64,000 bases of DNA. It comes from a virus. Taxonomy: Duplodnaviria; Caudoviricetes. The DNA lies in the IMG/VR virus record IMGVR_UViG_3300047272_000250, positions 32,001 to 96,000 of that record; one strand, written 5' to 3'. The notes under the pieces are model-generated. The model worked only from the letters and a program-made list of their open reading frames with translations. It did no database searches and was not told the origin of the DNA. The position numbers and the translations under genes were made by a program. Below are positions 20,507-60,491 of this stretch, one piece after another; position 1 is the stretch's first letter; every line of letters begins with the position of its first letter.

Positions 20507-22098
20507 CTAGAAAGTAATTGTTCCAGTTCCCGCTGTAAATCGATAAACTCTATATCCAGAGCGAGTTGGAGTGTCGTATGTTAATGTTCCAGGAATACTT
20601 GATATTGCTGGCATTGTATCTGGATATGCAACAATTACTACTCCAGAGCCTCCAGTACCACCTGGTCCAGCATCTCTAGAGCCTCCGCCACCGCCACCAG
20701 TGTTTGCAGCTCCATTTTGTGCATACTGAGTTGTACTTATTCCACTTCTATTATCATATCCAGCACCGCCGCCGCCTTGTCCACCTTGGCCATGTCCAGC
20801 ACTGCCGTCACCACAGCCACCACCGCCTCCTGCATAATAAGTTGCAGTTCCAGTAATAGAATATTGTTTTCCTATTCCACCATTTCCTCCAACGCTTGGT
20901 GTTGCATTAGCTCCTGCTCCGCCTGCGCCTCCACCACCGCCGCCTGCCCAGCTGCCTTGATATCCAGTTCCTCCTGTAAATCCAAATCCTGTTGCGTCAG
21001 ATGGAGATGTTTGAGTTGATACACCTGCTGCACCATTAGATTCTGCAGCTCCTCCGCCTCCACCAGATCCTCCAGGTCTGCCAGTTTGTGTAGTATATCC
21101 ATCAGCTCCAGATGCTGGGTTATTACTGCCATGGCCACCGCCTCCACCACCACCAAGTGCCAATAGTGTTCCAAATACTGAGTTAGAGCCATAGCTTCCA
21201 GGTCTTGATCCACTTTGCTGTGTTGGTCCTCCTGCTCCTCCAGAGCCTACAGTAATTGTTTTAGTAGAAGATAGTGTAATTGGATATGATGCAGAATATA
21301 CCAATCCTCCTGCTCCTCCGCCACCACCAACTTGTGAACCACCGCCGCCACCGCCTGCTACTACAAGGACTTCAATATTAGTAATGTTAGCTGTTAAGCT
21401 AAATGTTCTTGGCACAGTATTTGCACCATCTGTTGCATTTACTGTAAAAGTATATGTTGTATTTGTCGTGATATCTGGCAAAGTTCCTGAAATTACTCCA
21501 GAGCTAGAATTTAAAGTAACTCCAGAAGGGAGGCTTGATCCGTTAGCCAATGCATATGTTATAGTGCTAGATTCTGGATCTGTTGCAGAAAGAGCAGATA
21601 AAGTTATGCTTAGTTGTTCATTAAATGTACCAAGGCTTCCTGCTGGTGTCTGCCAAATTGGGCTCTGATTAATATAAAGTGCATCTGGGAGTAATCCAAA
21701 AAGATTAGACGTATTTGTAACCTTAATGTCATAAGGCTCGTATGCTGCAGATAGACCTGAAAACGTTGTAGTAATAGATACGATAGAGTTTACAGTTGTT
21801 GAATTAGCATTTACCTCTACGCCATTTGTTCCAATTGCTGAAGCAATTGCCCCTGTTGAAAAATTTGTTCCTGTAATATCTAGAGTAGCTGAGCCTACTG
21901 ATTCAAGATAGTTACCAGATACTGAAACTACACCAGGTGTCTCAGATACAATATTCTGCCAACCAGTATTTGTATAAAGTTCTAGACGCTTTTCTTCTCC
22001 ATTTGAATACAGCTTACCTATACCTGCATTAGCTGGACGACCAGCATTATTACCATATGGAATTCCTCCACCAGTAATATCTGAGAATTTAATTGTCA
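20507..22098 (-). CDS. Ig-like arm plus glycine-rich domain virion protein
   Basis: IPT/TIG-like and putative Ig domains (SATDPE..ITY..LPSGVTLNSSSGVISGT); C-terminal EVLVVAGGGGGG...GGSGVVIVAY domain; likely start MTIKFSD. Confidence 0.8.
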
Positions 22099-22488
22099 TC
22101 CTAGTCTCCATCCAAGAGTCGGACCAGTATATATTAATACCGCCGCTGCTTTATCTACGTCAATTATAGCATTTTCTGCTACCCCGTTAATATTTTTATT
22201 ATTACGGTTAATTATAATGTTATGTGTTCCCGCCGTTCCAGATGCATCAAACAACTGAACCTCGTCTCCTAGAGACGGGTTAGCAGGAAGTGTAATAGTT
22301 CTTTCAGATGAAGTGTCTACAAAGTAACGATATCCTGGTTGAGCAGTTATATCAGAAGATACAGATGCTGAAACTTCTTTTTTGCGCTGAATAAGGTCTG
22401 CCTGTGTTACATAATCTGGCGGGATAGCAGCCATTATGCCTACATTTACCCACTCAGTTCCGCTCCATACCTTAATTGTTTTAGCCAT
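22096..22488 (-). CDS. Small fibre/decoration protein
   Basis: YFVDTS...TITLPANPSLGDEVQLFDASG...GW domain, also found at the C-terminus of 26416..28272. Confidence 0.7.
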   Translation of the reverse strand: MAKTIKVWSGTEWVNVGIMAAIPPDYVTQADLIQRKKEVSASVSSDITAQPGYRYFVDTSSERTITLPANPSLGDEVQLFDASGTAGTHNIIINRNNKNINGVAENAIIDVDKAAAVLIYTGPTLGWRLG

Positions 22489-47879: not shown

Positions 47880-48130
47880 GGGATATATCGCTATATGTTT
47901 GAAGAGCTTCAAGAAGCTCTTTGGCTATCCCGTCGAAATCAATAGTTCCGTTATTAAAGTATTTTCCAGATTGGATACACTTTTGTAGTGTATTTGCAAT
48001 GTATTTTTGTTTATCCATACATATCACCTCTAATACAGTATAACAAATAATCAGTATTAGTACAAATACTATATATGCCCTGTTTATTTATATATTATAG
48101 AAATGTTAATAAAATTTTAAATTTGACTAG

Positions 48131-48205
48131 TAGGGATACTTGGATTTGAACCAAGAGTAGATTGCATATAAGACAATTGCTTTAACCAGATTAAGCTATA
48201 TCCCC
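48131..48205 (-). tRNA. tRNA-Ile (anticodon UAU)
   Basis: Cloverleaf with GGGGATA/TATCCCT acceptor, TAGCTTAATCTGGTTAAAGC D-arm, ATTGT-CT[TAT]AT-GCAAT anticodon arm and CTTGG-TTCAAAT-CCAAG T-arm; CCA not encoded. Confidence 0.9.
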
Positions 48206-48513: not shown

Positions 48514-48616
48514 TTAAAATTGTAACAGCAAAGAATTTTCTATGTCAACCCCGCCTGGTCCAAATTCATAAAAATGTTAACAAATTTCGTTTTTGTATCA
48601 TTCGTCTTTTTTAAAA

Positions 48617-48632
48617 TCGAACAGGCGTTCGA
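48617..48632. promoter_or_regulatory. Actinobacterial LexA (SOS) box
   Basis: TCGAAC-AGGC-GTTCGA, an exact TCGAAC-N4-GTTCGA. Confidence 0.75.
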
Positions 48633-48770
48633 ATAGCGAGCACAGATGTGGGCTAAATCACATAGATAAATGTCCGAATTGTCCGTGTTGGTGCTTGAAT
48701 TTGTCAGTCCCCTGTGTTATAGTTCTACTATAAGAAATTAGCAAATAGCTAATAAAGAAAGGAATTCAAA

Positions 48771-48983
48771 ATGAATTCACTAAATACACTAACAGTAGTA
48801 GTAGAACCTAGCCACTCAATGGCTTCATCTAACACTAAGAATAATAATATCTTCCGCCTTGCTAATGGTAACTACATTAGCCGTATGGCTTATGTTTATA
48901 TGGTAGCCTCTGAGAATATGGTTTCTCACCGCTACCTAACACCTAACGAAAGTCGTTGGGTATTCGCTAATCGTGTGGCGTAA
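48771..48983 (+). CDS. Early hypothetical protein
   Basis: AGAAAGGA RBS after the first early promoter. Confidence 0.75.
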   Translation: MNSLNTLTVVVEPSHSMASSNTKNNNIFRLANGNYISRMAYVYMVASENMVSHRYLTPNESRWVFANRVA

Positions 48984-49062
48984 CTCACACGATAATAACT
49001 TGACTTTATCCAATCTAATCAATTAAACTTATACCATAACAAAAAGAATAGGAAATAAATAA

Positions 49063-49774
49063 ATGACAATAACTTACTCAATCTGGCAGGGTTCCCGCCT
49101 TCTATCAATCGACAATATCGCTAACGATATTAAAGAAATTGACCACTTAATGAATTCGCTAAATGCTAGCGACTTAGGCAAGAAAGTTAAATTCTCTGCC
49201 AACGTTCAAGGAATTAAGGTAACTAAGTAAATGGGTTACGTTGAATTCTTTCGCCTTGATACTGATGGGGCTGGCTGGGTAGATTTATCTAATGCCCGCC
49301 CTAGCGAATTGCTTGACCTAGAAATAGGGCTTGAGTTAGAGGGTAGCCCTGTGCTACCATTAAACGGAACTTTATTCTCTACACCTGAGAATAACTAGAA
49401 GAATAGGAAATAAAATAAATGGAAATAACATTAGAACTATCTAAATGGGGCTTTGGTCTTTACTCTCCTTGGTTTGGTATTGACCTAACTTGGGGCTTTA
49501 TTATCACCGCTGGAATTGTTACCCTCGCTGTTAAGTTTCTTAATAAGCGTGGTTTATATTTCTCTAATAAGTTTAGAAAGGTTAAGTAATGATGACACGC
49601 AAGGACTACGTTAAAACCGCCGCAATTCTAAAAACACATTTTGAAAATAACCCGCAACTTTCTCAAGAAGTCTTCGAGGATTTAGTTGATGAATTTTCTT
49701 TAATGTTTGAAGAAGATAACGAAAGATTTGACTCTGATAAATTTTTAGAGGCTTGTCTTCCTGATTTAGAATAA
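49063..49774 (+). CDS. Operon of four small early ORFs (49063-49230, 49231-49398, 49419-49589 membrane, 49589-49774)
   Basis: Read manually; RBS and coupled start/stop codons; TTGACT-N18-TAAACT promoter at 49000. Confidence 0.65.
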
Positions 49775-49795
49775 AAAAAATAAATAAATAAAATT

Positions 49796-49826
49796 GCTGC
49801 GACGATCTCGCAGCTTTTTTATTTTA
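49796..49826 (+). terminator. Rho-independent terminator
   Basis: GCTGCGA-CGATC-TCGCAGC-TTTTTT. Confidence 0.8.
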
Positions 49827-50049
49827 TAAATAAAAAAATAAATAGTTGAAATTTCAACTAAAAGCGGGCCACCCCGCTGTCGGGCGTGTCTGTTAAGAAA
49901 CTTGTGGATAACCCCTGAAAAAATGTGATGTGATTCACATTTCAAAATGTCCGATTTGTGGCATTACTGGTCAGTAGATGTCAGACCCCCCTGCTATACT
50001 TCTAGGTATAGAAAGTTGAGAAAGGTTCTCAAACTAGAAAGGAATTCAA

Positions 50050-50610
50050 ATGAATTCAAATGTAATAATCGAAGTATGTAAAACACATACACCTAATAAG
50101 TCTGCTAAGTCATTCCATAATGACACATGCTACACATTCTGCGAAGTTTGTGAAAACAATATCGAATCATGGTACATGGACTATGATTCAGACCGCTTAA
50201 GCGGTTGGTCTTCATGGAAGGTTTCTAACTAATGAATAAATTAAAAAATCAGATAGATGAAAATGAATTCTATCAAATCGTTGATGAAATGTTCTATTGC
50301 TGTGATGAGTCACAGTTTAGACACTATTGCAAAAAGCATACCGAACTAATGGGTTGCTACTATTGCGAATTTGACTATACACAAGAATGTGAGTGTAAAT
50401 AAATGAAAGATTTATTTTGTAAAGGTTGCGATGAATTCGTAATTGAAATGTCCGAAGAGGAATCAGAATTTATTTCCGTCCTCTGCTCTAATTGTTGGGA
50501 GATATAAAATGGAAAAAGATATTTTTGGTTTTGCAGATGCAATTCAATTAGACCATTTAACAAAAGAAGAGTTAGAAGAAATTGCAATCATGTTAGGAAT
50601 TAAAGAATGA
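50050..50610 (+). CDS. Cluster of small, mostly Cys-rich early ORFs (50050-50232, 50232-50402, 50403-50507, 50509-50610)
   Basis: Coupled ORFs with CxxH/CxxC motifs. Confidence 0.65.
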
Positions 50611-50698
50611 ATTTTTATCAAACGTTTTTCGTAAGCGGTAATGCATTGTTTTGGTTTTCAATGATCAATTTATTTATTGGTTTTTATTTATTTGTAAA

Positions 50699-50732
50699 AG
50701 AATAAATATGCAGAGCTTTGCATAAAAATGCG
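50699..50732. promoter_or_regulatory. Tandem ARG-box-like operator (second copy at 53087-53120)
   Basis: AGAATAAATATGCA-N6-TGCATAAAAATGCG; 20-bp period. Confidence 0.6.
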
Positions 50733-50931
50733 GGGCACCACGCATTCGGGCGTGTTGCAATTAAGACACGCCGATAAAACCCCATAAAATTTGTGAGATC
50801 GAACACAGTGTGATGTAGAACACATGTGACCTACACCACAAAGTCCCAAATGTCCGATTTATACCCCTCAAAATGTCAGACCCCTCTGCTAGAATACTAT
50901 GTATAAAGATTAAAAAAGAAAGGTGGTCAAA

Positions 50932-51087
50932 ATGACTACATTAACAGAAACTCTATTCAGCACTATCGTGCATGACTTTCACAATGGGGGAGTAAAATCC
51001 TCTTATGGGCTAGATGCCTACACACGCAAGGAAATCCTTGCTTATCTCTTACGCTCTAAAGGCTGTAATTGTATAAAATGTCTGTGA
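50932..51087 (+). CDS. Early hypothetical protein (51 aa)
   Basis: AGAAAGGT RBS; MTTLTETLF...GCNCIKCL. Confidence 0.7.
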   Translation: MTTLTETLFSTIVHDFHNGGVKSSYGLDAYTRKEILAYLLRSKGCNCIKCL

Positions 51088-51180
51088 TGTAAATCACCCC
51101 GACACTTTGGGGAAAATCCCCCAAAATGTCAGACCCCCATGCTAGAATTGCTACCATAAACAAAAAGAAAGAAGGACAAA

Positions 51181-51384
51181 ATGTCAGCAAATGTTTATTC
51201 AGTTGAAAGCCTCTTAGTAGGTCAGGAATACTTTTCTAAGAGTGTTCGTGGAAAAATCGTAAGTGCAGAAAAGCACCCCCATGCAGTATGGTATGAAGGT
51301 TGCGAAAGTTACCTTGTTGAAATCCGCCCGCAGTATGGAATTAAAAATACATACCGCACAATTGCCGTTAAGACTTCTAACTAA
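51181..51384 (+). CDS. Early hypothetical protein (small beta-barrel-like)
   Basis: GAAGGA RBS after an early promoter. Confidence 0.75.
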   Translation: MSANVYSVESLLVGQEYFSKSVRGKIVSAEKHPHAVWYEGCESYLVEIRPQYGIKNTYRTIAVKTSN

Positions 51385-51397
51385 GAAAAGAGAAAAA

Positions 51398-51709
51398 ATG
51401 ATAAACGCAACAATTACAACTTACTCAGGCGATAAGAAAGTTATCCCTTTTCAAAATCGTGAAGCCGTTCAGAAATTCATTCAAGAATTACCTAAGCGAC
51501 TTTCTAAAAACACTTCCGTATTCTTTGAGTGCGATATCTTTTCAATTTCAGGAACAATCAGAGGAGAAAAATAAATGGGACAATTAAAAGAAATTATTGC
51601 CGTTGCTTGTGATGAGTGCGGTGGTGCAGGATTTTTATTTTGGGGCGATGAAAATAACTATGATGTAGAAACTTGTAATTGCGAATTTGATGAAACGGAG
51701 TTAATTTAA
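51398..51709 (+). CDS. Two small early ORFs (51398-51574; 51575-51709 Zn-finger CDECGGAG...CNC)
   Basis: Coupled ORFs; the track start at 51263 is probably too early. Confidence 0.6.
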
Positions 51710-52126
51710 TGTTGATGACTAATGGAGATTTACTAGCAATTATTATTGCGCTACTAGGTTTAACTGTTGCACTTGCTTATCAGTTTATTTTTATCCGCCG
51801 ACTAACGGAAGAAAATGAAATGCTATGGGAAAAACTAACTGATTTAATTAAAGAAAAAAATAAATAAATGGAAATTTTATTTTTAATCGGGATGATCGTC
51901 GGCGCTGCATTTTTTATTCTTGCAGCTGTCGGTGATATCTTTTTTTAGTTGAACTTTCAACTAATTTAGACACGCCCGAGCGAGGCAGGCCGCCTGTGGA
52001 TAACTCTGTGGATTAAGTACGATGTGATTTTTCTCACAAAATTATTTACGACTTACCGACGGGTAGCCTAAAAAATGTCAGTAAAGTCTGATAGACTTGT
52101 ATTATTCACAACACGAAAGGGAAACT

Positions 52127-52237
52127 ATGAACCTCGATGAATTCAAGGCACACGTTATCGCACAACGTGAAGCAAGCAAGGCAGAAGCCTTGTCAGTCCT
52201 ATCCACTACAATTAAAGAAAAGAAAGAAGGTAAATAA
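52127..52237 (+). CDS. 36-aa early peptide containing an embedded promoter
   Basis: GAAAGGG RBS; MNLDEFKAHVIAQREASKAEALSVLSTTI. Confidence 0.65.
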   Translation: MNLDEFKAHVIAQREASKAEALSVLSTTIKEKKEGK

Positions 52238-52239
52238 TA

Positions 52240-52455
52240 ATGGACTATCTCTACTCAGTTACTTGCACTTATGACGGAGACCGCTCACCACATTGGGTTG
52301 GTCGCTATGACAACGCTATCGACGCAGTTAATTCTTGGAATAAGTTTGTTGATTGGGGTATGGCTAACGAATACTCTACAATAAATTTCTCAGAGCCTAA
52401 TGGCAAAATGCACACAAAGATTTTTTATCGTAATGGAAATGTAGGTGGTAAGTAA
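52240..52455 (+). CDS. Early hypothetical protein
   Basis: RBS and promoter upstream. Confidence 0.75.
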   Translation: MDYLYSVTCTYDGDRSPHWVGRYDNAIDAVNSWNKFVDWGMANEYSTINFSEPNGKMHTKIFYRNGNVGGK

Positions 52456-52661
52456 TGGTAGAACTAAAGCACTCGCTTAATTTTGTAAGCGAAATAGATG
52501 AAACCTCTCGACTAGGTAAAATGCTAATTAGCCTGCCTGCGGATAAGCAAAAGGCTATGCTCGAAGATGCGTTAAAGGATGCAATTCTTCCTACGCTACT
52601 TCCTGAACTTGAAAGAATTAACGAAGGTGCCTCATGGGCAATACTAAAGGTGGTTAAATAA
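52455..52661 (+). CDS. Early hypothetical protein
   Basis: TAATG coupling. Confidence 0.7.
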   Translation: MVELKHSLNFVSEIDETSRLGKMLISLPADKQKAMLEDALKDAILPTLLPELERINEGASWAILKVVK

Positions 52662-52936
52662 TGGGAAGCAATATGGCATATGACCTAGCAAGCGATGAAC
52701 TAGGATTAGATTTGGAAGTGGCTATTGCTATGCACTTGCAGTCTAATCACTACCCGCCCGTTCCTACTTCGATGGTAGAACCTTGCATCGAAGCAATTGA
52801 CGCATACTATGAAGAGGACTACAACAGAGCAATTCCTATGCCTGAAGGCGTATTCTATAAGGGAATGAAAACTGCACCAGCCTCAGCAATAATCGAGCAA
52901 CACCACTTATCAGCGTGGCTACCAGAGGAGTATTAA
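52661..52936 (+). CDS. Early hypothetical protein
   Basis: TAATG coupling; HLQSNHYPPVP motif. Confidence 0.75.
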   Translation: MGSNMAYDLASDELGLDLEVAIAMHLQSNHYPPVPTSMVEPCIEAIDAYYEEDYNRAIPMPEGVFYKGMKTAPASAIIEQHHLSAWLPEEY

Positions 52937-52937
52937 A

Positions 52938-53093
52938 ATGGAAAACGAAAAAGTAAAACGTGTGCAGGAGTTGCGTCGCAGTAATGCTGCGACTGCAATT
53001 CCGTCTAAGAAAAAATATAAAAGAAAAACTAAAAATAAAAAAGAAAAAATATTGCAATACTACAGCGATCTAGTATCACCATTCTTTAAATAA
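52938..53093 (+). CDS. Basic 51-aa peptide
   Basis: GAGGAG RBS; ELRRSNAATAIPSKKKYKRKTK. Confidence 0.65.
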   Translation: MENEKVKRVQELRRSNAATAIPSKKKYKRKTKNKKEKILQYYSDLVSPFFK

Positions 53094-53251
53094 ATATGCA
53101 AAGCTCTGCATAAATATGCGGGGCACCCCGCAGTCGGGCGTGTCTCTATTAAGGACACTGTGATTTTTCTCACAAAATTTAGGGCGGATCTGATTTGGAA
53201 ATGTCAGTCTAATTTGATAGTATTAATATACCCGTTAAGAAAGGTCAACTC

Positions 53252-53974
53252 ATGACAAAATTAAAACGCTCTAATGATAGAAAGGTGGCTAACCTTGTCA
53301 CAAAAAACGGAAAGCAAGCAGCAATCGCTAACACATTCGGCCTACCTGCTGGAAAGAATTTCTCGTGCCCTGGTGCCACTAGTATTTGTGAAAGCGTATG
53401 CTACGCAGGCAAGCTTGAAAAGTTATTCAAGGGAGTAAAAACTAATCTCCTGCACAATTGGGACCTATTGAAGAATGCGGACCTGCAGGAAATGTATACT
53501 CTTCTCTCAGAAATGGTTGCAGAATTTAAAGCTGAATGCGTTAAGAAAGACGCACCTATGCTATTCCGTATCCACTGGGACGGAGATTTCTTTAATGAAG
53601 ACTACACACGTGCATGGCGCCTAGTAATTGAAGAACAGCCAGACATTCAATTTTGGGTTTACACTCGTGTAAAGTCTGCAGCACTCATCCTTAAGGATAT
53701 CGAAAACTTATCTCTATATTATTCAACCGATGATGAGAATCTTCCAATTGCGACGGACCTAAAGCAAAACAGTGGTGTACGTCTTGCATACCTAGGTAAG
53801 ACTTTCGCATTAACAGAAACTAAGATGAAAGAAATTACAGGAAAAGTTGGTGCACGGTGCCCTGAAAATAATAAATCAATTCCATTAATTTCTAGCAATG
53901 GGTCCGCATGCGTTTCTTGTGGTCTCTGCGTATACGGTAAGGCTGACATTAGATTTTCTGCAACGAAAAAATAA
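53252..53974 (+). CDS. Gp88-like (GP88 family) Cys-cluster protein
   Basis: FGLPAG...CPGA...C...CYA, FRIHWDGDF, FWVYTR and CP...CVSCGLC motifs. Confidence 0.78.
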   Translation: MTKLKRSNDRKVANLVTKNGKQAAIANTFGLPAGKNFSCPGATSICESVCYAGKLEKLFKGVKTNLLHNWDLLKNADLQEMYTLLSEMVAEFKAECVKKDAPMLFRIHWDGDFFNEDYTRAWRLVIEEQPDIQFWVYTRVKSAALILKDIENLSLYYSTDDENLPIATDLKQNSGVRLAYLGKTFALTETKMKEITGKVGARCPENNKSIPLISSNGSACVSCGLCVYGKADIRFSATKK

Positions 53975-54257
53975 AATGATATATCTGATCATACTTACTA
54001 CGGTGGGAGTACTTGCCACTCCCGCCGTAGTTATCTCTTTACTTTATAATTCTGTAAATAAAAATTATAAAAAAGATTTTTAAAAGATGCGGCCCAGCTC
54101 GCTACTGGTGAGTATGTCAAATTACGGGCGTGTGATTTTTCTCACACGATTTTACGGGGACAATTCGGACATTTTAACCATAATTAGGTATGTTCGATTA
54201 GTAATTGTCAGTCAGGTCGTGTAGAATTATATTATCAAACAAACGAAAGGAAGCACA

Positions 54258-54407
54258 ATGACAACAACTCCAAAAATCGGGGAAACCTTCACAACTGCTA
54301 AGTCTGGTGTATCAGGCAAGGTTGAGGAAGTAGTCAAGAACGCAAATGGCTCTTTGCGTGTTCGCCTCAATGTTGAGGGAACAGAACGCTGGACAACAAT
54401 CAAGTAA
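54258..54407 (+). CDS. 49-aa early protein (paralog of 54968..55150)
   Basis: GAAAGGA RBS; GETFTTAKSGVSG...RW. Confidence 0.75.
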   Translation: MTTTPKIGETFTTAKSGVSGKVEEVVKNANGSLRVRLNVEGTERWTTIK

Positions 54408-54488
54408 GAAGGTTGGGGCTACTGGTAAATGTCAGTAGCCCCTGCTACACTTAAATATAACAACCCAAATAGAAAAGGAATAAATGCT

Positions 54489-54890
54489 ATGGCAAGAGCA
54501 ATCTCAGTAAAGGTGGCAACACCAAAGGTAATCAAGGCTTTGGAAGCAAAGTTGGCAGATAGCAAGAGCGCAATCACCAACAATGAAAAGAAGCGTAAGG
54601 AATACGAGAAAACAGAAAAGGCTTGGGCTAAGGAAGTTGCAGACCTAGTATTCAAGCACATCTCAAAGGCAGAAGTTTCTGCACATGAGAACTATCGTAA
54701 TGAACTCAATGTAAATCTCACACTTCCAGCAGGAACAATCAAGTTGCCTGAGAAGCCTTCTATCGAACTTGAAAATGAACTTGGTCGCTATGAAGTTCAG
54801 GAAATCGAGAACGCAATTCGTATTCTCAAAATGACAGATGAGGACACAGTTAATGCCTCAACTTTCAAGTCAATCGCACAATATCTATAA
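54489..54890 (+). CDS. Early coiled-coil protein
   Basis: True start is MARAISVK at 54489 (AAAGGA RBS); the track start lies inside the promoter. Confidence 0.78.
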   Translation: MARAISVKVATPKVIKALEAKLADSKSAITNNEKKRKEYEKTEKAWAKEVADLVFKHISKAEVSAHENYRNELNVNLTLPAGTIKLPEKPSIELENELGRYEVQEIENAIRILKMTDEDTVNASTFKSIAQYL

Positions 54891-54905
54891 TTCCCAATAG
54901 GGAAC

Positions 54906-54934
54906 TCAACCTGAGCAAGTTGGAAAACTGCTCA
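54906..54934 (+). ncRNA. H-type RNA pseudoknot (intergenic)
   Basis: S1 UCAAC/GUUGG, S2 UGAGCA/UGCUCA, L3 AAAAC. Confidence 0.55.
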
Positions 54935-54967
54935 ACCAACCCACATAAAGAAAAGGAAAATAAATAA

Positions 54968-55150
54968 ATGGCACCAATTACAAATACAACAACAGGTCGT
55001 TTCTATAAGAAGGGCGACACTTTCACAACAGGTAAGTCAGGAATTACTGGCGCAATCACAGAAATTATTTCTGTCCGTCCTAATCTAACTAAGTTAGGTT
55101 TGCAAACAGAAAATGGTTTGCGTTGGGCTATGGTAAAAATCGGCGCATAA
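54968..55150 (+). CDS. 60-aa early protein
   Basis: GDTFTTGKSGITG...RW. Confidence 0.75.
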   Translation: MAPITNTTTGRFYKKGDTFTTGKSGITGAITEIISVRPNLTKLGLQTENGLRWAMVKIGA

Positions 55151-55153
55151 CTT

Positions 55154-55242
55154 TCATCGGGGGATGAATAACTACACGCAACACTAAGTGTAGTTGGGAG
55201 TCTAGGTTACCTTTCTTTCCTAGGCTCCCGCAAACCCGATGA
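55154..55242 (+). ncRNA. Three-way-junction RNA with anti-SD loop
   Basis: Outer stem UCAUCGGG/CCCGAUGA; 8-bp and 11-bp hairpins; loop UUACCUUUCUUU. Confidence 0.6.
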
Positions 55243-55398
55243 TCGTAGCTTATCCACAAAGTTATCCACAGGCGCCCTGGGTCGCAAATTCGGACATTTA
55301 CGACATTAAGGAAAAATGCCTGAGATTGCCAGAATAATTAGACAGATGTCACCCCAGTCTGCTAGACTTAATATATCAACCTAACGAAAGAAGGAATC

Positions 55399-56412
55399 AT
55401 GGCTCACAACCTAGAAGAACAAAATGGTCAAGTTGCTTTTGCATTACGTGGAAAGCCTGCTTGGCACAATCTCGCTAACAAAATTTTCGGCGACGAAGAA
55501 ATTGTTACAACACAGTCAATGCTTTCAGAAGCAAAACTTTCTAATTGGAATGTCCGCTTAGAAGCAATGGCAGACCACACGCCTGAATCTTATCGTGATT
55601 CATCTGGCGCTCAATTAGTTCTTCGCACAAATCCATTTGACAATGGCACTGACGTGCTTTCTGTTGTCGGTTCTCGATACAAGGTAGTGCAGAATGAAGA
55701 ATTGTTTGCGTTTGCAGATAACATTCTTGACGGCGACGAATCTTGCAAGTGGGAATCTGCGGGTTCTCTAAAGAAGGGCAAAGTTGTATTCGGCTCTCTT
55801 ACAGTTCCCCGCACAATGGTTCTTGACCCACAAGGTGCTAACGATGAGACAAAACTCTATCTAATCGTTTGGACATCACACGATGGTTCTGTTGCTGTTC
55901 AGGCTGCGATTACACCTGTTCGTGTAGTTTGCCAAAACACCCTTAACCTTGCAATGCGTAATGCAAAGCAATCTTTCAAGATTCGCCACACACAGACAGC
56001 AGAAGGCAAAATTGTTGCTGCTCGTGAGGCTCTTGGTTTGACTTTCGCTTATGCTGATGAGTTTGAGAAGGAAATGCAAGCCCTTTTCAATGCGAAGATT
56101 ACTGACAAGAAGTTTTCGCAAATCATCAACACACTTTACCCAAAGCCTGAGAAGGATTCTAAGGGTTCTCTAAAGAAGTGGGAGAACAAGGTTGTTCTCA
56201 TTGACGAGTTGTATCACAACTCACCAACTAACGCTAACATCAAGGGCACAGCGTGGGGTGCGCTTAACGCTATGACTGAGCGCCTTGATTACTATCGCAC
56301 AGCCCGCACAGGTAATGGCGAATCTCTTATGTCTTCTGCTTCTGGTTTTGACCCAGTAATTACAGCAGAAAAAAATAAGTTAGCAAAACAAATCTTGGCT
56401 CTGGCTAAGTAA
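55399..56412 (+). CDS. DUF932 / TIGR03299 family phage-plasmid protein
   Basis: PAWH.L, VG.RY.VVQN, ESAGSL..G, SHDGS, TPVRVVCQNTL, IRHT and GTAWGALNA motifs. Confidence 0.9.
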   Translation: MAHNLEEQNGQVAFALRGKPAWHNLANKIFGDEEIVTTQSMLSEAKLSNWNVRLEAMADHTPESYRDSSGAQLVLRTNPFDNGTDVLSVVGSRYKVVQNEELFAFADNILDGDESCKWESAGSLKKGKVVFGSLTVPRTMVLDPQGANDETKLYLIVWTSHDGSVAVQAAITPVRVVCQNTLNLAMRNAKQSFKIRHTQTAEGKIVAAREALGLTFAYADEFEKEMQALFNAKITDKKFSQIINTLYPKPEKDSKGSLKKWENKVVLIDELYHNSPTNANIKGTAWGALNAMTERLDYYRTARTGNGESLMSSASGFDPVITAEKNKLAKQILALAK

Positions 56413-56419
56413 TAGGAGA

Positions 56420-56447
56420 GGGGGGCGAAAGCCCCCCTTTTTTATTT
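56420..56447 (+). terminator. Rho-independent terminator
   Basis: GGGGGGC-GAAA-GCCCCCC-TTTTTT. Confidence 0.9.
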
Positions 56448-56574
56448 GATCATTTTTTGATTTGACAAATCCAGCTTGATCGGGATGGGTCGCTGTGATT
56501 TTTCTCACATTAAGTACGATAAGAAAAATCCCCCAGGATTTGTGGATGTCAGTCGTTTTTGCTATAGTTAATGT

Positions 56575-56790
56575 ATGACAGAAGAAAACCATTGGCAGTT
56601 TAAAGTAGCATGTGCTCCACAGGATTTTGATTTATTCTTTAGCAACGCAAAAGGTAAGCGGGCTCAGGCATTAGCCATATGTGGTAAATGCCCAGTCTCA
56701 AATGAATGTTTAAACCATGCGATAGAGAATAATGTAGAGCACGGGATATTCGGAGGAAAGACACCTGAACAGAGAAGGAAGATGAAATGA
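56575..56790 (+). CDS. whiB: WhiB-family Fe-S transcription factor
   Basis: C...D.FF...ICxxCPV..ECL..A...HGIFGG.T..QR; leaderless from the promoter at 56547. Confidence 0.93.
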   Translation: MTEENHWQFKVACAPQDFDLFFSNAKGKRAQALAICGKCPVSNECLNHAIENNVEHGIFGGKTPEQRRKMK

Positions 56791-57107: not shown

Positions 57108-57341
57108 TTGACTAAATCATCTCATTTCATAGAATATATGAAGTTACATGAGATTAGTCTATTACAAGATGCTGAAAAGCTTCAAGACCTTATGAGTAAT
57201 TATGAATATAACTACGATTCAGATGAATATAGAGAGTTAGAGATTGCTGATTATCATAATACTGGAGAACTAATTGCAACCCGCCACCTTTTGTCAGTGG
57301 CAACTGATATAATGAATTCCTCTAACGAAAGGTATGAATAA
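57108..57341 (+). CDS. Early hypothetical protein
   Basis: GGAGG RBS with TTG start; embedded promoter at the 3' end. Confidence 0.65.
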   Translation: MTKSSHFIEYMKLHEISLLQDAEKLQDLMSNYEYNYDSDEYRELEIADYHNTGELIATRHLLSVATDIMNSSNERYE

Positions 57342-57917: not shown

Positions 57918-58171
57918 TGAATAACTGTGATCAATGCTTCTATGGCACTTACACTTACTATAATGGTATGGATGAGAAACAAGAAATAGATTGTCCCTTC
58001 TGTGCTACCCGTGTTCCTAGTAATTGGAGACGTATGACAGAAGATCAAAAATCAACTTGGTTGAAATTAATTCCCAATCCAGATAAATAGCTGGTGCGGT
58101 TCCAGTCGCTGTCAATTTGTCGACATTAAGTACGATTTGTAAAATCCCCCAGAATCCTGTAGTATTAAGAC

Positions 58172-58363
58172 ATGACTGAAACTACCATGGAATATGTATT
58201 AAAAGTTGAAGATAGATGTGACAAGTGTCAGGCTCAGGCATTATACTTATGTAAGGGTGTATCTGGAGAGCTGATGTTTTGCCGCCACCACTTTAATGAA
58301 AACCAGGAATCACTAACCAATTGGGCTTACGAGATCGTAGACGAGTCCCAAAAAATATCCTAA
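58172..58363 (+). CDS. Small Zn-binding protein of an actinobacterial family
   Basis: DRCDKC.AQA...GELMFC.HH; leaderless. Confidence 0.75.
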   Translation: MTETTMEYVLKVEDRCDKCQAQALYLCKGVSGELMFCRHHFNENQESLTNWAYEIVDESQKIS

Positions 58364-59402: not shown

Positions 59403-60058
59403 AAAACAAATCATGGACAAAGTACACCTTTGCCTGTGATCCTGAAGAATGTGATACTTTAATTGAAGTAACATGTGATGACTATGGATTCCCACTAGGT
59501 GTGATGCAAATCACATGTCCGTGTGGGCGCAAGCTTGACATCTTGTCAGTGGCCAATGCTACAATTGAATCAACTACTACAGAAGGAAACCATATGGAAA
59601 CAACATCAACAATCGGCTCAGATGCATTGCACTCACCTGCAGTGGAGTACAACCCTAATCAATTAGTTACATATAAGGTCCTAAGTGGATACTCAGACCC
59701 TGAGTATAAAACGGACAAGGTAACATCCCTGGAATGGGACCTGCACAACGGACGTCAGTCACAAAAGCGTGTGGGCCTACTAGAATCAAACATTAATTCA
59801 GTTAAAGAAATCATTACTGAATCATATGCTGAGTCAGAAGACCAAGAAACTTTGCGTTCAATCGCAGAGGCTTTGGGCATTGAACTAACCCGTACAATCG
59901 AATGGAGCGCTACAATTGAGGTTAGCGGTACCATGGAAGTAGACCTCCTAGAGGACGTCGACATCGAGCAGGAAATCTATGACAATCTTTACGTAGATTC
60001 TCAGAATGGCAATATCGAAATCGGGGACACCGAAGTTTGTAACGCACACGAGTGCTAA
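59399..60058 (+). CDS. Hypothetical protein (Zn-ribbon N-terminus; probable internal start at 59594)
   Basis: GGAGG RBS before MKNKSW; second promoter and AGAAGGA RBS before METTST. Confidence 0.65.
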   Translation: MKNKSWTKYTFACDPEECDTLIEVTCDDYGFPLGVMQITCPCGRKLDILSVANATIESTTTEGNHMETTSTIGSDALHSPAVEYNPNQLVTYKVLSGYSDPEYKTDKVTSLEWDLHNGRQSQKRVGLLESNINSVKEIITESYAESEDQETLRSIAEALGIELTRTIEWSATIEVSGTMEVDLLEDVDIEQEIYDNLYVDSQNGNIEIGDTEVCNAHEC

Positions 60059-60437: not shown

Positions 60438-60491
60438 GCAGCTCAGGTGATCGAGTTGACGGGTGTCAGTGGGACAGGCTATACTTAATAT

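Follow-up and report, generated by a model that had tools for sequence, protein, structure and literature searches.

L5 stoperators and the conserved inverted repeats of phiC31 are phage-specific words, bound by a phage repressor and often located over or within transcription units. Phages also make use of sites for host master regulators, as is the case for the NtcA and PhoB boxes of cyanophages. Spo0A boxes are present in the DNA of phi29 and Nf, and repress in phi29 (PMC2731898); T4-type phages carry PeSLs, mobile cassettes formed by a stem-loop and an early promoter (PMC2839356, PMC4122927). Repeated early promoter cassettes and host master-regulator sites in phages are both, as such, already known. 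The DNA analyzed here is a stretch of 64,000 nucleotides, hereafter the window, corresponding to bases 32001-96000 of the complete 104,393-bp IMG/VR virus record IMGVR_UViG_3300047272_000250 (about 40% GC), and the elements under study are the intergenic spacers of a block of small rightward genes, about 35 in number, located at 48.7-61 kb. A preliminary description had presented these spacers as a previously undescribed host-takeover system, which is overstated, since the phi29 boxes already show a phage using sites of a host master regulator.

The explanation preferred here, to which a probability of about 0.55 is assigned, is that the spacers are cis-regulatory cassettes of the early rightward block, which would take host CRP-type and DnaA inputs at PafBC-type promoters. 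The phage would probably tie early gene expression to the state of the host, rather than soak up host proteins. At its start, each cassette would have one or more terminator-like hairpins belonging to the upstream operon and, at its end, a PafBC-type promoter, in which TGTCRG stands exactly 10 nt before a -10 element, often TG-extended, without a -35; putative host-regulator sites would lie between the two, in constant order. The main input would come from a dimer of the CRP family sitting on TGTGA-N6-TCACA, on a single helical face, centered at about -54, -64, -74, -84 or -95 from the start, and acting on RNA polymerase in the manner of a class I activator. In a subset of the cassettes, a second input would come from single or tandem high-affinity DnaA-type 9-mers further upstream. 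The cassettes are paralogous, and would have been copied, partly homogenized and reshuffled along with the small genes they drive. The binding proteins, the sign of the regulation and the start sites were all inferred from the sequence.

The words composing the spacers are strongly enriched in the window, where they are restricted to 48.6-60.5 kb, and were also found in about 190 related IMG/VR loci. For comparison, 217 IMG/VR loci were retrieved by using the DUF932 protein encoded in the block, and 80 were kept, for a total of 1.29 Mb. These relatives contain 905 promoters, all on the gene strand, together with 379 exact CRP-like sites, 309 copies of TTATCCACA and 156 copies of CGGGCGTGT. A pattern search for a CRP site followed by a promoter detected 108 further loci, but 105 of them encode homologues of proteins of the present phage and fall in the same broad family, so that the recurrence of the composite is uninformative on the host reader.

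The window contains 15 matches to TGTCRG-N10-TAnnnT, where 1.05 would be expected. Of these, 14 are on the + strand, between 48702 and 60464; those at 52191 and 58226 fall within reading frames and are doubtful. In 690 family contexts the promoter consensus is aaaTGTCAGt(G/C)(C/G)c..cTGnTAtAAT, and no information is present at -35 to -30 apart from phased A-tracts. The latter are repeated with an 11-bp period ahead of the -26 element (-2, -13, -24, -35 and about -56 from TGTCAG), which suggests intrinsic curvature or an UP-like element. An unbiased count was performed on 1,908 distinct TGnTAnnnT words: at the position 10 nt ahead of the -10, TGTCAG was found 378 times and TGTCGG 64 times, every other hexamer being counted 23 times at most, and neither of the two occurs in registers shifted by 1-2 nt.

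The published pattern of PafBC promoters is tGTCgg(N10)tA(N3)T: the -26 element covers -23 to -28, the -10 is canonical and a -35 is lacking (PMC8635444). Because the TGTCRG-N10-TAnnnT pattern, the lack of a -35 and the register test agree, the sequence match of the phage promoters to this class is complete, and a dependence on host PafBC can be inferred for them. A reader of the MotA, PhoB or SARP type, placed on TGTCAG at -28 to -23, 10 nt before the -10, had also been considered and was dropped in favor of PafBC, after that report and the register test.

TGTGA-N6-TCACA, the CRP motif conserved across distant phyla (PMC10187061), occurs in the window at 12 sites, allowing up to one mismatch, against 2.4 expected, all located in spacers between 48.6 and 59.5 kb. 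The preliminary description had read this word as a CRP box, and it does equal the canonical consensus of the putative host regulator. Within the family, 55% of the 694 distinct promoter contexts have a site of this kind within 110 bp, and such sites are 24-fold enriched relative to the remainder of the loci. Little information is contained in N6 and in the flanks, and the N6 are all different within each relative, which argues for selection on the half-sites. Family-wide, the distance from the center of the site to the T of TGTCAG is 26, 36, 46, 56 or 66-67 bp, and the phasing is evident when 75 sequence-distinct clusters are considered (Rayleigh R = 0.69, p about 3e-16, period 10.25 bp). The same peaks were reproduced in the 108 further loci, and comparable phasing was absent from all the other words tested. 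In the window the distances are 35, 36, 36, 41, 45, 45, 47, 47, 57, 67 and 74 bp. Searching IMG/VR for the exact 16-mer returned mostly unrelated single matches.

A second word, TTATCCACA, which we take to be the consensus DnaA box and which had already been pointed out as such, occurs 6 times in the 104-kb genome against 1.2 expected; 4 copies are in spacers and 2, corresponding to chance level, are inside coding sequences elsewhere. In the family loci its density is 140 per 100 kb upstream of promoters and 8.6 elsewhere. Of its 27 possible single substitutions only A3 -> T is common (54 occurrences, versus 0-9 for each of the others), TT(A/T)TCCACA being the only enriched form; since almost no other substitution is tolerated, all nine positions appear to be read. 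Some boxes stand alone and others form tandem pairs with a 12-bp offset; both orientations are used, and the distance upstream of TGTCAG is 56-135 bp.

Conservation of motifs and linkers in relatives was compared at the DUF932 spacer, where 60 orthologues are available. The first DnaA-type box (96%), the -26 element (99%) and the extended -10 (91%) stand well above the spacer mean of 74%, a result which does not extend to the CRP-like half-sites, as reported below. A phage replication origin at the DnaA boxes was evaluated and rejected: no origin-like clustered array beside an unwinding element was found, the boxes being single or paired and spread over the promoters. Given this dispersion, and since the phage encodes a helicase, a primase and a polymerase of its own (DnaB, DnaG and Pol III alpha), the boxes are read as putative transcriptional inputs.

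All of the eight spacers originally listed exist and are intergenic, and the one given as an example, 49843-50000, reads as it had been described. Each was said to end in a TGTCAG promoter, which holds in the form TGTCAG-N10-TAnnnT, except at 55347, where TGTCAC is found. Five more promoters of the class had been missed, along with two more spacers containing CRP-like sites (51083, 59500). The words are not shuffled, as had been proposed: a single order is followed in 8 of 8 window spacers with at least two word types, namely, from far to near, CGGGCGTGT, TTATCCACA, (CCCTGAAA), CRP-like site, TGTCCG and promoter. In the 104-kb genome CGGGCGTGT is found 5 times against 0.04 expected, and ATGTCCGA 7 times against 1.3. 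The elements of the block are reported below, with their window coordinates and strand.

48647..48662 (+): CRP-like site with one mismatch (TGTGG-N6-TCACA), center 47 bp before TGTCAG
48671..48685 (+): TGTCCG word in two copies, 31 and 22 bp ahead of the -26 element
48702..48723 (+): PafBC-type promoter, TGTCAG-N10-TATAGT
49796..49814 (+): intrinsic terminator hairpin with T-tract, end of the upstream operon
49844..49878 (+): two further hairpins, the "MarR-like" AGTTGAAATTTCAACT and AGCGGGCCACCCCGCT; fold z = -5.9, palindrome in 2 copies in the genome
49881..49889 (+): CGGGCGTGT word
49903..49911 (-): TTATCCACA, matching the DnaA-box consensus
49924..49939 (+): exact CRP-like site
49948..49953 (+): TGTCCG word, 31 bp before the -26 element
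49979..50000 (+): PafBC-type promoter
50701..50765 (+): 65-nt block, 88% paralogue of 53089-53153, with two hairpins and CGGGCGTGT (50747-50755)
50792..50840 (+): three abutting CRP-like sites (50792, 50809, 50825), one mismatch each, centers 74, 57 and 41 bp before TGTCAG
50851..50856 (+): TGTCCG word
50874..50895 (+): PafBC-type promoter
51083..51098 (+): CRP-like site with one mismatch in a short spacer, center 36 bp before TGTCAG
51127..51148 (+): PafBC-type promoter
51947..51962 (+): AGTTGAA-N-TTTCAACT hairpin, second copy
51970..51978 (-): CGGGCGTGT word, inverted
51995..52015 (-): tandem TTATCCACA and TAATCCACA, 12 bp start to start
52023..52038 (+): CRP-like site TGTGATTTTTCTCACA
52076..52097 (+): PafBC-type promoter
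53089..53153 (+): paralogue of 50701-50765, with hairpins and CGGGCGTGT (53135-53143)
53159..53174 (+): CRP-like site TGTGATTTTTCTCACA
53202..53223 (+): PafBC-type promoter of the GP88-family gene
53997..54031 (+): 14-bp terminator-like hairpin past the GP88 gene
54125..54146 (+): CGGGCGTGT overlapping the CRP-like site TGTGATTTTTCTCACA (54131-54146)
54166..54171 (-): TGTCCG word, CGGACA on the + strand
54206..54227 (+): PafBC-type promoter
54415..54451 (+): hairpin GGGGCTACTG-N8-CAGTAGCCCC, with loop and 3' arm containing the -26 element of the promoter at 54430-54451 (terminator/promoter composite)
55150..55246 (+): branched hairpin structure after the gene at 54968-55150, -42.8 kcal/mol, z = -6.4
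55250..55270 (+): two tandem copies of TTATCCACA, 12 bp start to start
55291..55296 (-): TGTCCG word, CGGACA on the + strand
55347..55368 (+): promoter variant TGTCAC-N10-TAGACT of the DUF932 gene; relatives have TGTCAG and a CRP-like site
56411..56446 (+): intrinsic terminator past the DUF932 gene
56494..56509 (+): CRP-like site TGTGATTTTTCTCACA
56547..56568 (+): PafBC-type promoter of the phage whiB gene
57292..57313 (+): PafBC-type promoter starting with TGTCAGTG, with no upstream words
59500..59515 (+): exact CRP-like site, followed by TGTCCG at 59516-59521
59544..59565 (+): PafBC-type promoter
60464..60485 (+): PafBC-type promoter, the last in the block

At their 5' ends the spacers have palindromes that form stable hairpins immediately after stop codons, beside canonical terminators. 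These palindromes include AGTTGAA-N-TTTCAACT, a TGCATA pair and GCGGGG-N-CCCCGC, present in two or three copies each; the MarR-like and TGCATA palindromes, with 2 copies each, form hairpins just past gene ends. Such palindromes are more simply read as operon-end, terminator-like hairpins than as MarR or ArgR operators, and the MarR, ArgR and redox assignments previously proposed for them are, on this ground, not supported. An Rfam search of the spacers detected no RNA family.

The sequence between motifs had been considered not conserved, which is only partly true within the genome, where blocks of 65, 51 and 32 nt are common to different spacers at 88, 80 and 91% identity, respectively (50701-50765 with 53089-53153, 56489-56539 with 58105-58155 and 52012-52043 with 53148-53179). 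These blocks would be expected if the repeats were chiefly recombination substrates, similar to PeSLs, that is, terminator-promoter units for the swapping of small genes, whose upstream words were mere passengers with little regulatory role. The hairpin overlapping the promoter at 54415-54451 fits this possibility, as do the relatives, where gene content and cassette order vary and many early open reading frames are present in only 1-20 of 81, with promoters persisting. Copying alone, however, leaves unexplained the free variation of N6 and flanks around fixed half-sites, the 10-bp phasing over 75 sequence-distinct contexts and the narrow substitution profile of the 9-mer, and an explanation chiefly based on recombination is held to be quite unlikely. 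The two roles, recombination and regulation, are compatible and not exclusive. The closest relative, 80-93% identical, is too distant for mapping recombination junctions.

Fixed order and phasing also bear on a further proposal of the preliminary description, a DNA sponge, in which the sites would titrate host CRP, DnaA and other regulators off the chromosome upon entry or replication of the phage DNA. The E. coli datA locus, which titrates DnaA, offers a precedent; moreover the sites are of consensus quality, probably with high affinity, and their copy number is expected to rise with replication. Against this, a genome carries only about 12 CRP-like sites, 5 DnaA-like sites and 1 LexA-like site, each upstream of a promoter, in fixed order and, in the case of CRP, in fixed helical phase, and site arrays away from promoters were not found. 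As a decoy needs neither a fixed order nor a promoter-proximal location nor helical phasing, the sponge is disfavored, and it is regarded as very improbable. The other option originally offered, a sensor of host state, agrees better with words occurring at constrained positions upstream of promoters, the 10-bp phasing of the CRP-type sites being its strongest point; the host proteins that it names are putative readers.

The main rival of the cassette explanation is that the words are operators of one or more phage-encoded regulators, made early or mid in infection, which would switch the early promoters up or off, the likeness to CRP and DnaA sites being due to convergence or coincidence. This is possible, although somewhat unlikely. 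The words CGGGCGTGTCG, CCCTGAAA and TGTCCG match no well-defined host site, and Streptomyces phage Jay2Jay has CGGACA in its early spacers as well. In addition, a weak Sigma70_r4-like match is present in a 62-aa frame. In favor of host inputs, a six-frame examination of the whole 104-kb genome detected none of the following domains: CRP, cNMP-binding, DnaA C-terminal, WYL, sigma-r2, HTH_3 and MarR.

A phage reader is made less probable by several results. TGTGA-N6-TCACA and TTATCCACA are the exact consensus of two universal host proteins, and the 9-mer tolerates substitutions no more widely than a high-affinity DnaA box does. The CRP-type sites are phased upstream of the core and not over it, a location which suits a polymerase-contacting activator better than a shut-off repressor. 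Phylogenetic profiling revealed no early open reading frame present in all the site-rich relatives and absent from the site-poor ones, the best cases being 33/59 versus 0/11 and 41/59 versus 2/11. Finally, an early activator would not yet be present at the first firing of its own promoter.

A number of observations weigh against the proposed host inputs, and some of them favor a phage reader. Most small early proteins match no known family, and PHROGs and Pfam searches on the conserved ones gave nothing useful. A family-conserved protein of 171-187 aa, encoded outside the window (full record 21756-22319, - strand), combines a MerR/BldC-like winged helix-turn-helix, matching PF12728 below threshold, with an invariant HRGRPRKDG AT-hook and flanking small beta domains; its AlphaFold model (pLDDT 83) has local Foldseek matches to MerR-type domains, which makes it a candidate phage DNA binder. 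Of the six exact CRP-like sites in the genome, four are the identical 16-mer TGTGATTTTTCTCACA, which indicates recent copying and would also be compatible with a phage reader. Searches of genome contigs with the phage WhiB, which had zero matches, and with the phage RecA, which matched only phage contigs binned into unrelated metagenome-assembled genomes, gave no actinobacterial genome, so that the host CRP, PafBC and TTATCCACA-preferring DnaA are presumed.

Other difficulties concern the CRP-type sites. At the one deeply aligned orthologous spacer, that of DUF932, conservation of the half-sites is 0.78, against a spacer mean of 0.74 and 0.66 for N6; being barely above the mean, the half-sites indicate that these sites turn over, and in the present genome the site has been lost from this spacer, where relatives have one. 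Core strength hardly differs between promoters with and without a CRP-like site. If the start is assumed 7 nt after the -10 hexamer, the centers fall at -54.5, -64.5, -74.5, -84.5 and -95.5, with a shift of about 3 bp from the class I positions of E. coli (-61.5, -71.5, -82.5, -92.5). A smaller group of sites, at 41-42 bp and often in abutting triples, is displaced by half a helical turn. The triple at 50792-50840 has sites 16-17 bp apart, and its 41/57/74 pattern, seen again in relatives, explains this out-of-phase group; the geometry of such triples may be different, perhaps repressive.

An extended form of the cassette explanation assigns to each early operon a three-input logic based on host proteins: PafBC, responding to single-stranded DNA or damage, at the -26 element, cyclic AMP-CRP on the right face of the helix and DnaA, linked to replication and ATP, further upstream, with replicating sites that might also drain DnaA and CRP. 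This complete scheme is judged unlikely. If true, the phage would not need an early regulator of its own, and different operons would fire in different host states.

Two further elements are located at the start of the rightward block.

48617..48632: perfect TCGAAC-N4-GTTCGA palindrome TCGAACAGGCGTTCGA, the actinobacterial LexA-box consensus, 1 against 0.03 expected
48548-48519: leftward TTGACA-18-TGnTACAAT promoter, pointing at tRNA-Ile(TAT) 48130-48205

The palindrome is the sole copy in the genome, and a few relatives also have one. It lies about 70-85 bp from the neighboring promoters and overlaps neither the rightward one at 48702 nor the leftward one at 48548-48519; the LexA input once postulated would be based on this single perfect site, overlapping no promoter, and is not supported. 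The WhiA assignment is not supported either. The WhiA core, GACAC, is expected close to the -35 of promoters that depend on WhiA/WhiB (PMC10243135), and in the spacers it is a 5-mer within the longer word (C)GGCGTGTCG, too short for an assignment; the longer word often abuts the -26 element in relatives and is 66-126 bp upstream in the window.

TGTCCG is similar to the -26 element, down to the AAATGTC start, and is found 22-32 bp before it at a minority of promoters, whereas CCCTGAAA comes before the CRP-like site or the -26 element. The terminal-repeat early region of Streptomyces phage Jay2Jay (1-11000) has a GC hairpin, a CGGACA word, a TGnTAGACT -10 and then a small gene, in the same layout as the present cassettes. 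Its promoters are of the -35 type, and PafBC-type, CRP-like and DnaA words are all absent from that region. CGGACA/TGTCCG is thus common to distant actinophages.

Most of the genome is occupied by leftward genes, including those for Pol III alpha, DnaB, DnaG, RecA, RuvC and ThyX. Pfam matches in the rightward block are limited to WhiB (56575-56790), a GP88-family protein (53252-53974), DUF932 (55399-56412), DUF7455 (58172-58363) and a DUF1281_C-like domain. The best cultured match of the DUF932 gene, 55% identical, is in Streptomyces BE-cluster phages; together with the WhiB, GP88, DUF7455 and DUF932 genes themselves, this indicates an actinobacterial host. The present phage is an uncultured freshwater phage, probably of actinobacteria. 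A megablast search against cultured phages gave no DNA-level match. Contigs of the same phage family, with RecA 74-85% identical, sit in metagenome-assembled genomes labeled Bacteroidia and cyanobacterium, which are probably cases of mis-binning and not hosts.

Some features of individual genes were also noted. The DUF7455 gene has an extended -10, TGTAGTAT (58158-58165), 6 nt before its ATG, and seems to be leaderless and read from this element; its spacer (58105-58171) is an 80% paralogue of the whiB spacer, with TGTCAATTTGTCGACA in place of the CRP-like site and without a -26 element. Two paralogous small proteins, encoded at 54258-54407 (49 aa) and 54968-55150 (60 aa), have in common the motif G(E/D)TFTT(A/G)KSG(V/I)(S/T)G, and the 49-aa protein is conserved in 76 of 81 relatives. 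Outside the block, the N-terminus of a 178-aa protein (full record 100003-100539, - strand) matches the proteasome subunit family PF00227 over residues 2-42 only.

Gene control has hardly been studied in phages that infect low-GC freshwater actinobacteria, hosts which are very abundant. Host CRP and DnaA, if they truly feed PafBC-type promoters, would make this family a clear natural case of a lytic phage giving its whole early program to host sensors, and the outcome of infection in lakes would be linked to the nutrient, replication and DNA-damage state of the host. The spacers would also supply compact phased promoter parts for actinobacteria, and a test bed for a class I activator and sigma adaptation acting together, a combination not found described in the literature searched.

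The hybrid PafBC promoters of mycobacteria ("sigma adaptation", PMC8635444) have the same 22-nt layout as the phage ones, with TGTCRG at -28 to -23, exactly 10 nt of spacing, TAnnnT and no -35. The phage promoters differ in being present in 13-15 copies driving small early genes, mostly with A and not G at the fifth position and many with an upstream CRP-type site; their dependence on PafBC is presumed from sequence. A literature search on PafBC together with phage promoters retrieved nothing of the kind. Class I CRP promoters, such as those of the E. coli lac type and of actinobacterial CRP/GlxR (PMC10187061), similarly have a consensus site upstream of the core, at positions one helical turn apart. 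In the phage, the core is of the PafBC type rather than -35/-10, the centers are offset by about 3 bp, and an out-of-phase minor class and abutting triples are present.

Among phage systems, the Spo0A boxes of phi29 and Nf and the NtcA and PhoB boxes of cyanophages also place host-regulator-type sites near early promoters, coupling phage development to the physiological state of the host. The regulators are different, and the present phage has at least two site types and a host-alarm promoter, repeated over many operons in a large family. With the PeSLs of T4-type phages the cassettes share repeated stem-loop/early-promoter units, located around variable small genes of unknown function, whose content and order vary among relatives; PeSLs are not known for host-regulator sites, whereas the present cassettes carry predicted ones. 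As for L5 stoperators and phiC31 repeats, one short word is found at many intergenic places of an actinophage genome, but in the present phage the two words that are best defined coincide with host consensus sites, and neither a repressor nor an integrase was seen. What appears to be new is the combination of a PafBC-type core, phased CRP-type sites and DnaA-type boxes, as read from the words, over a dozen operons in a very large family of uncultured freshwater actinophages.

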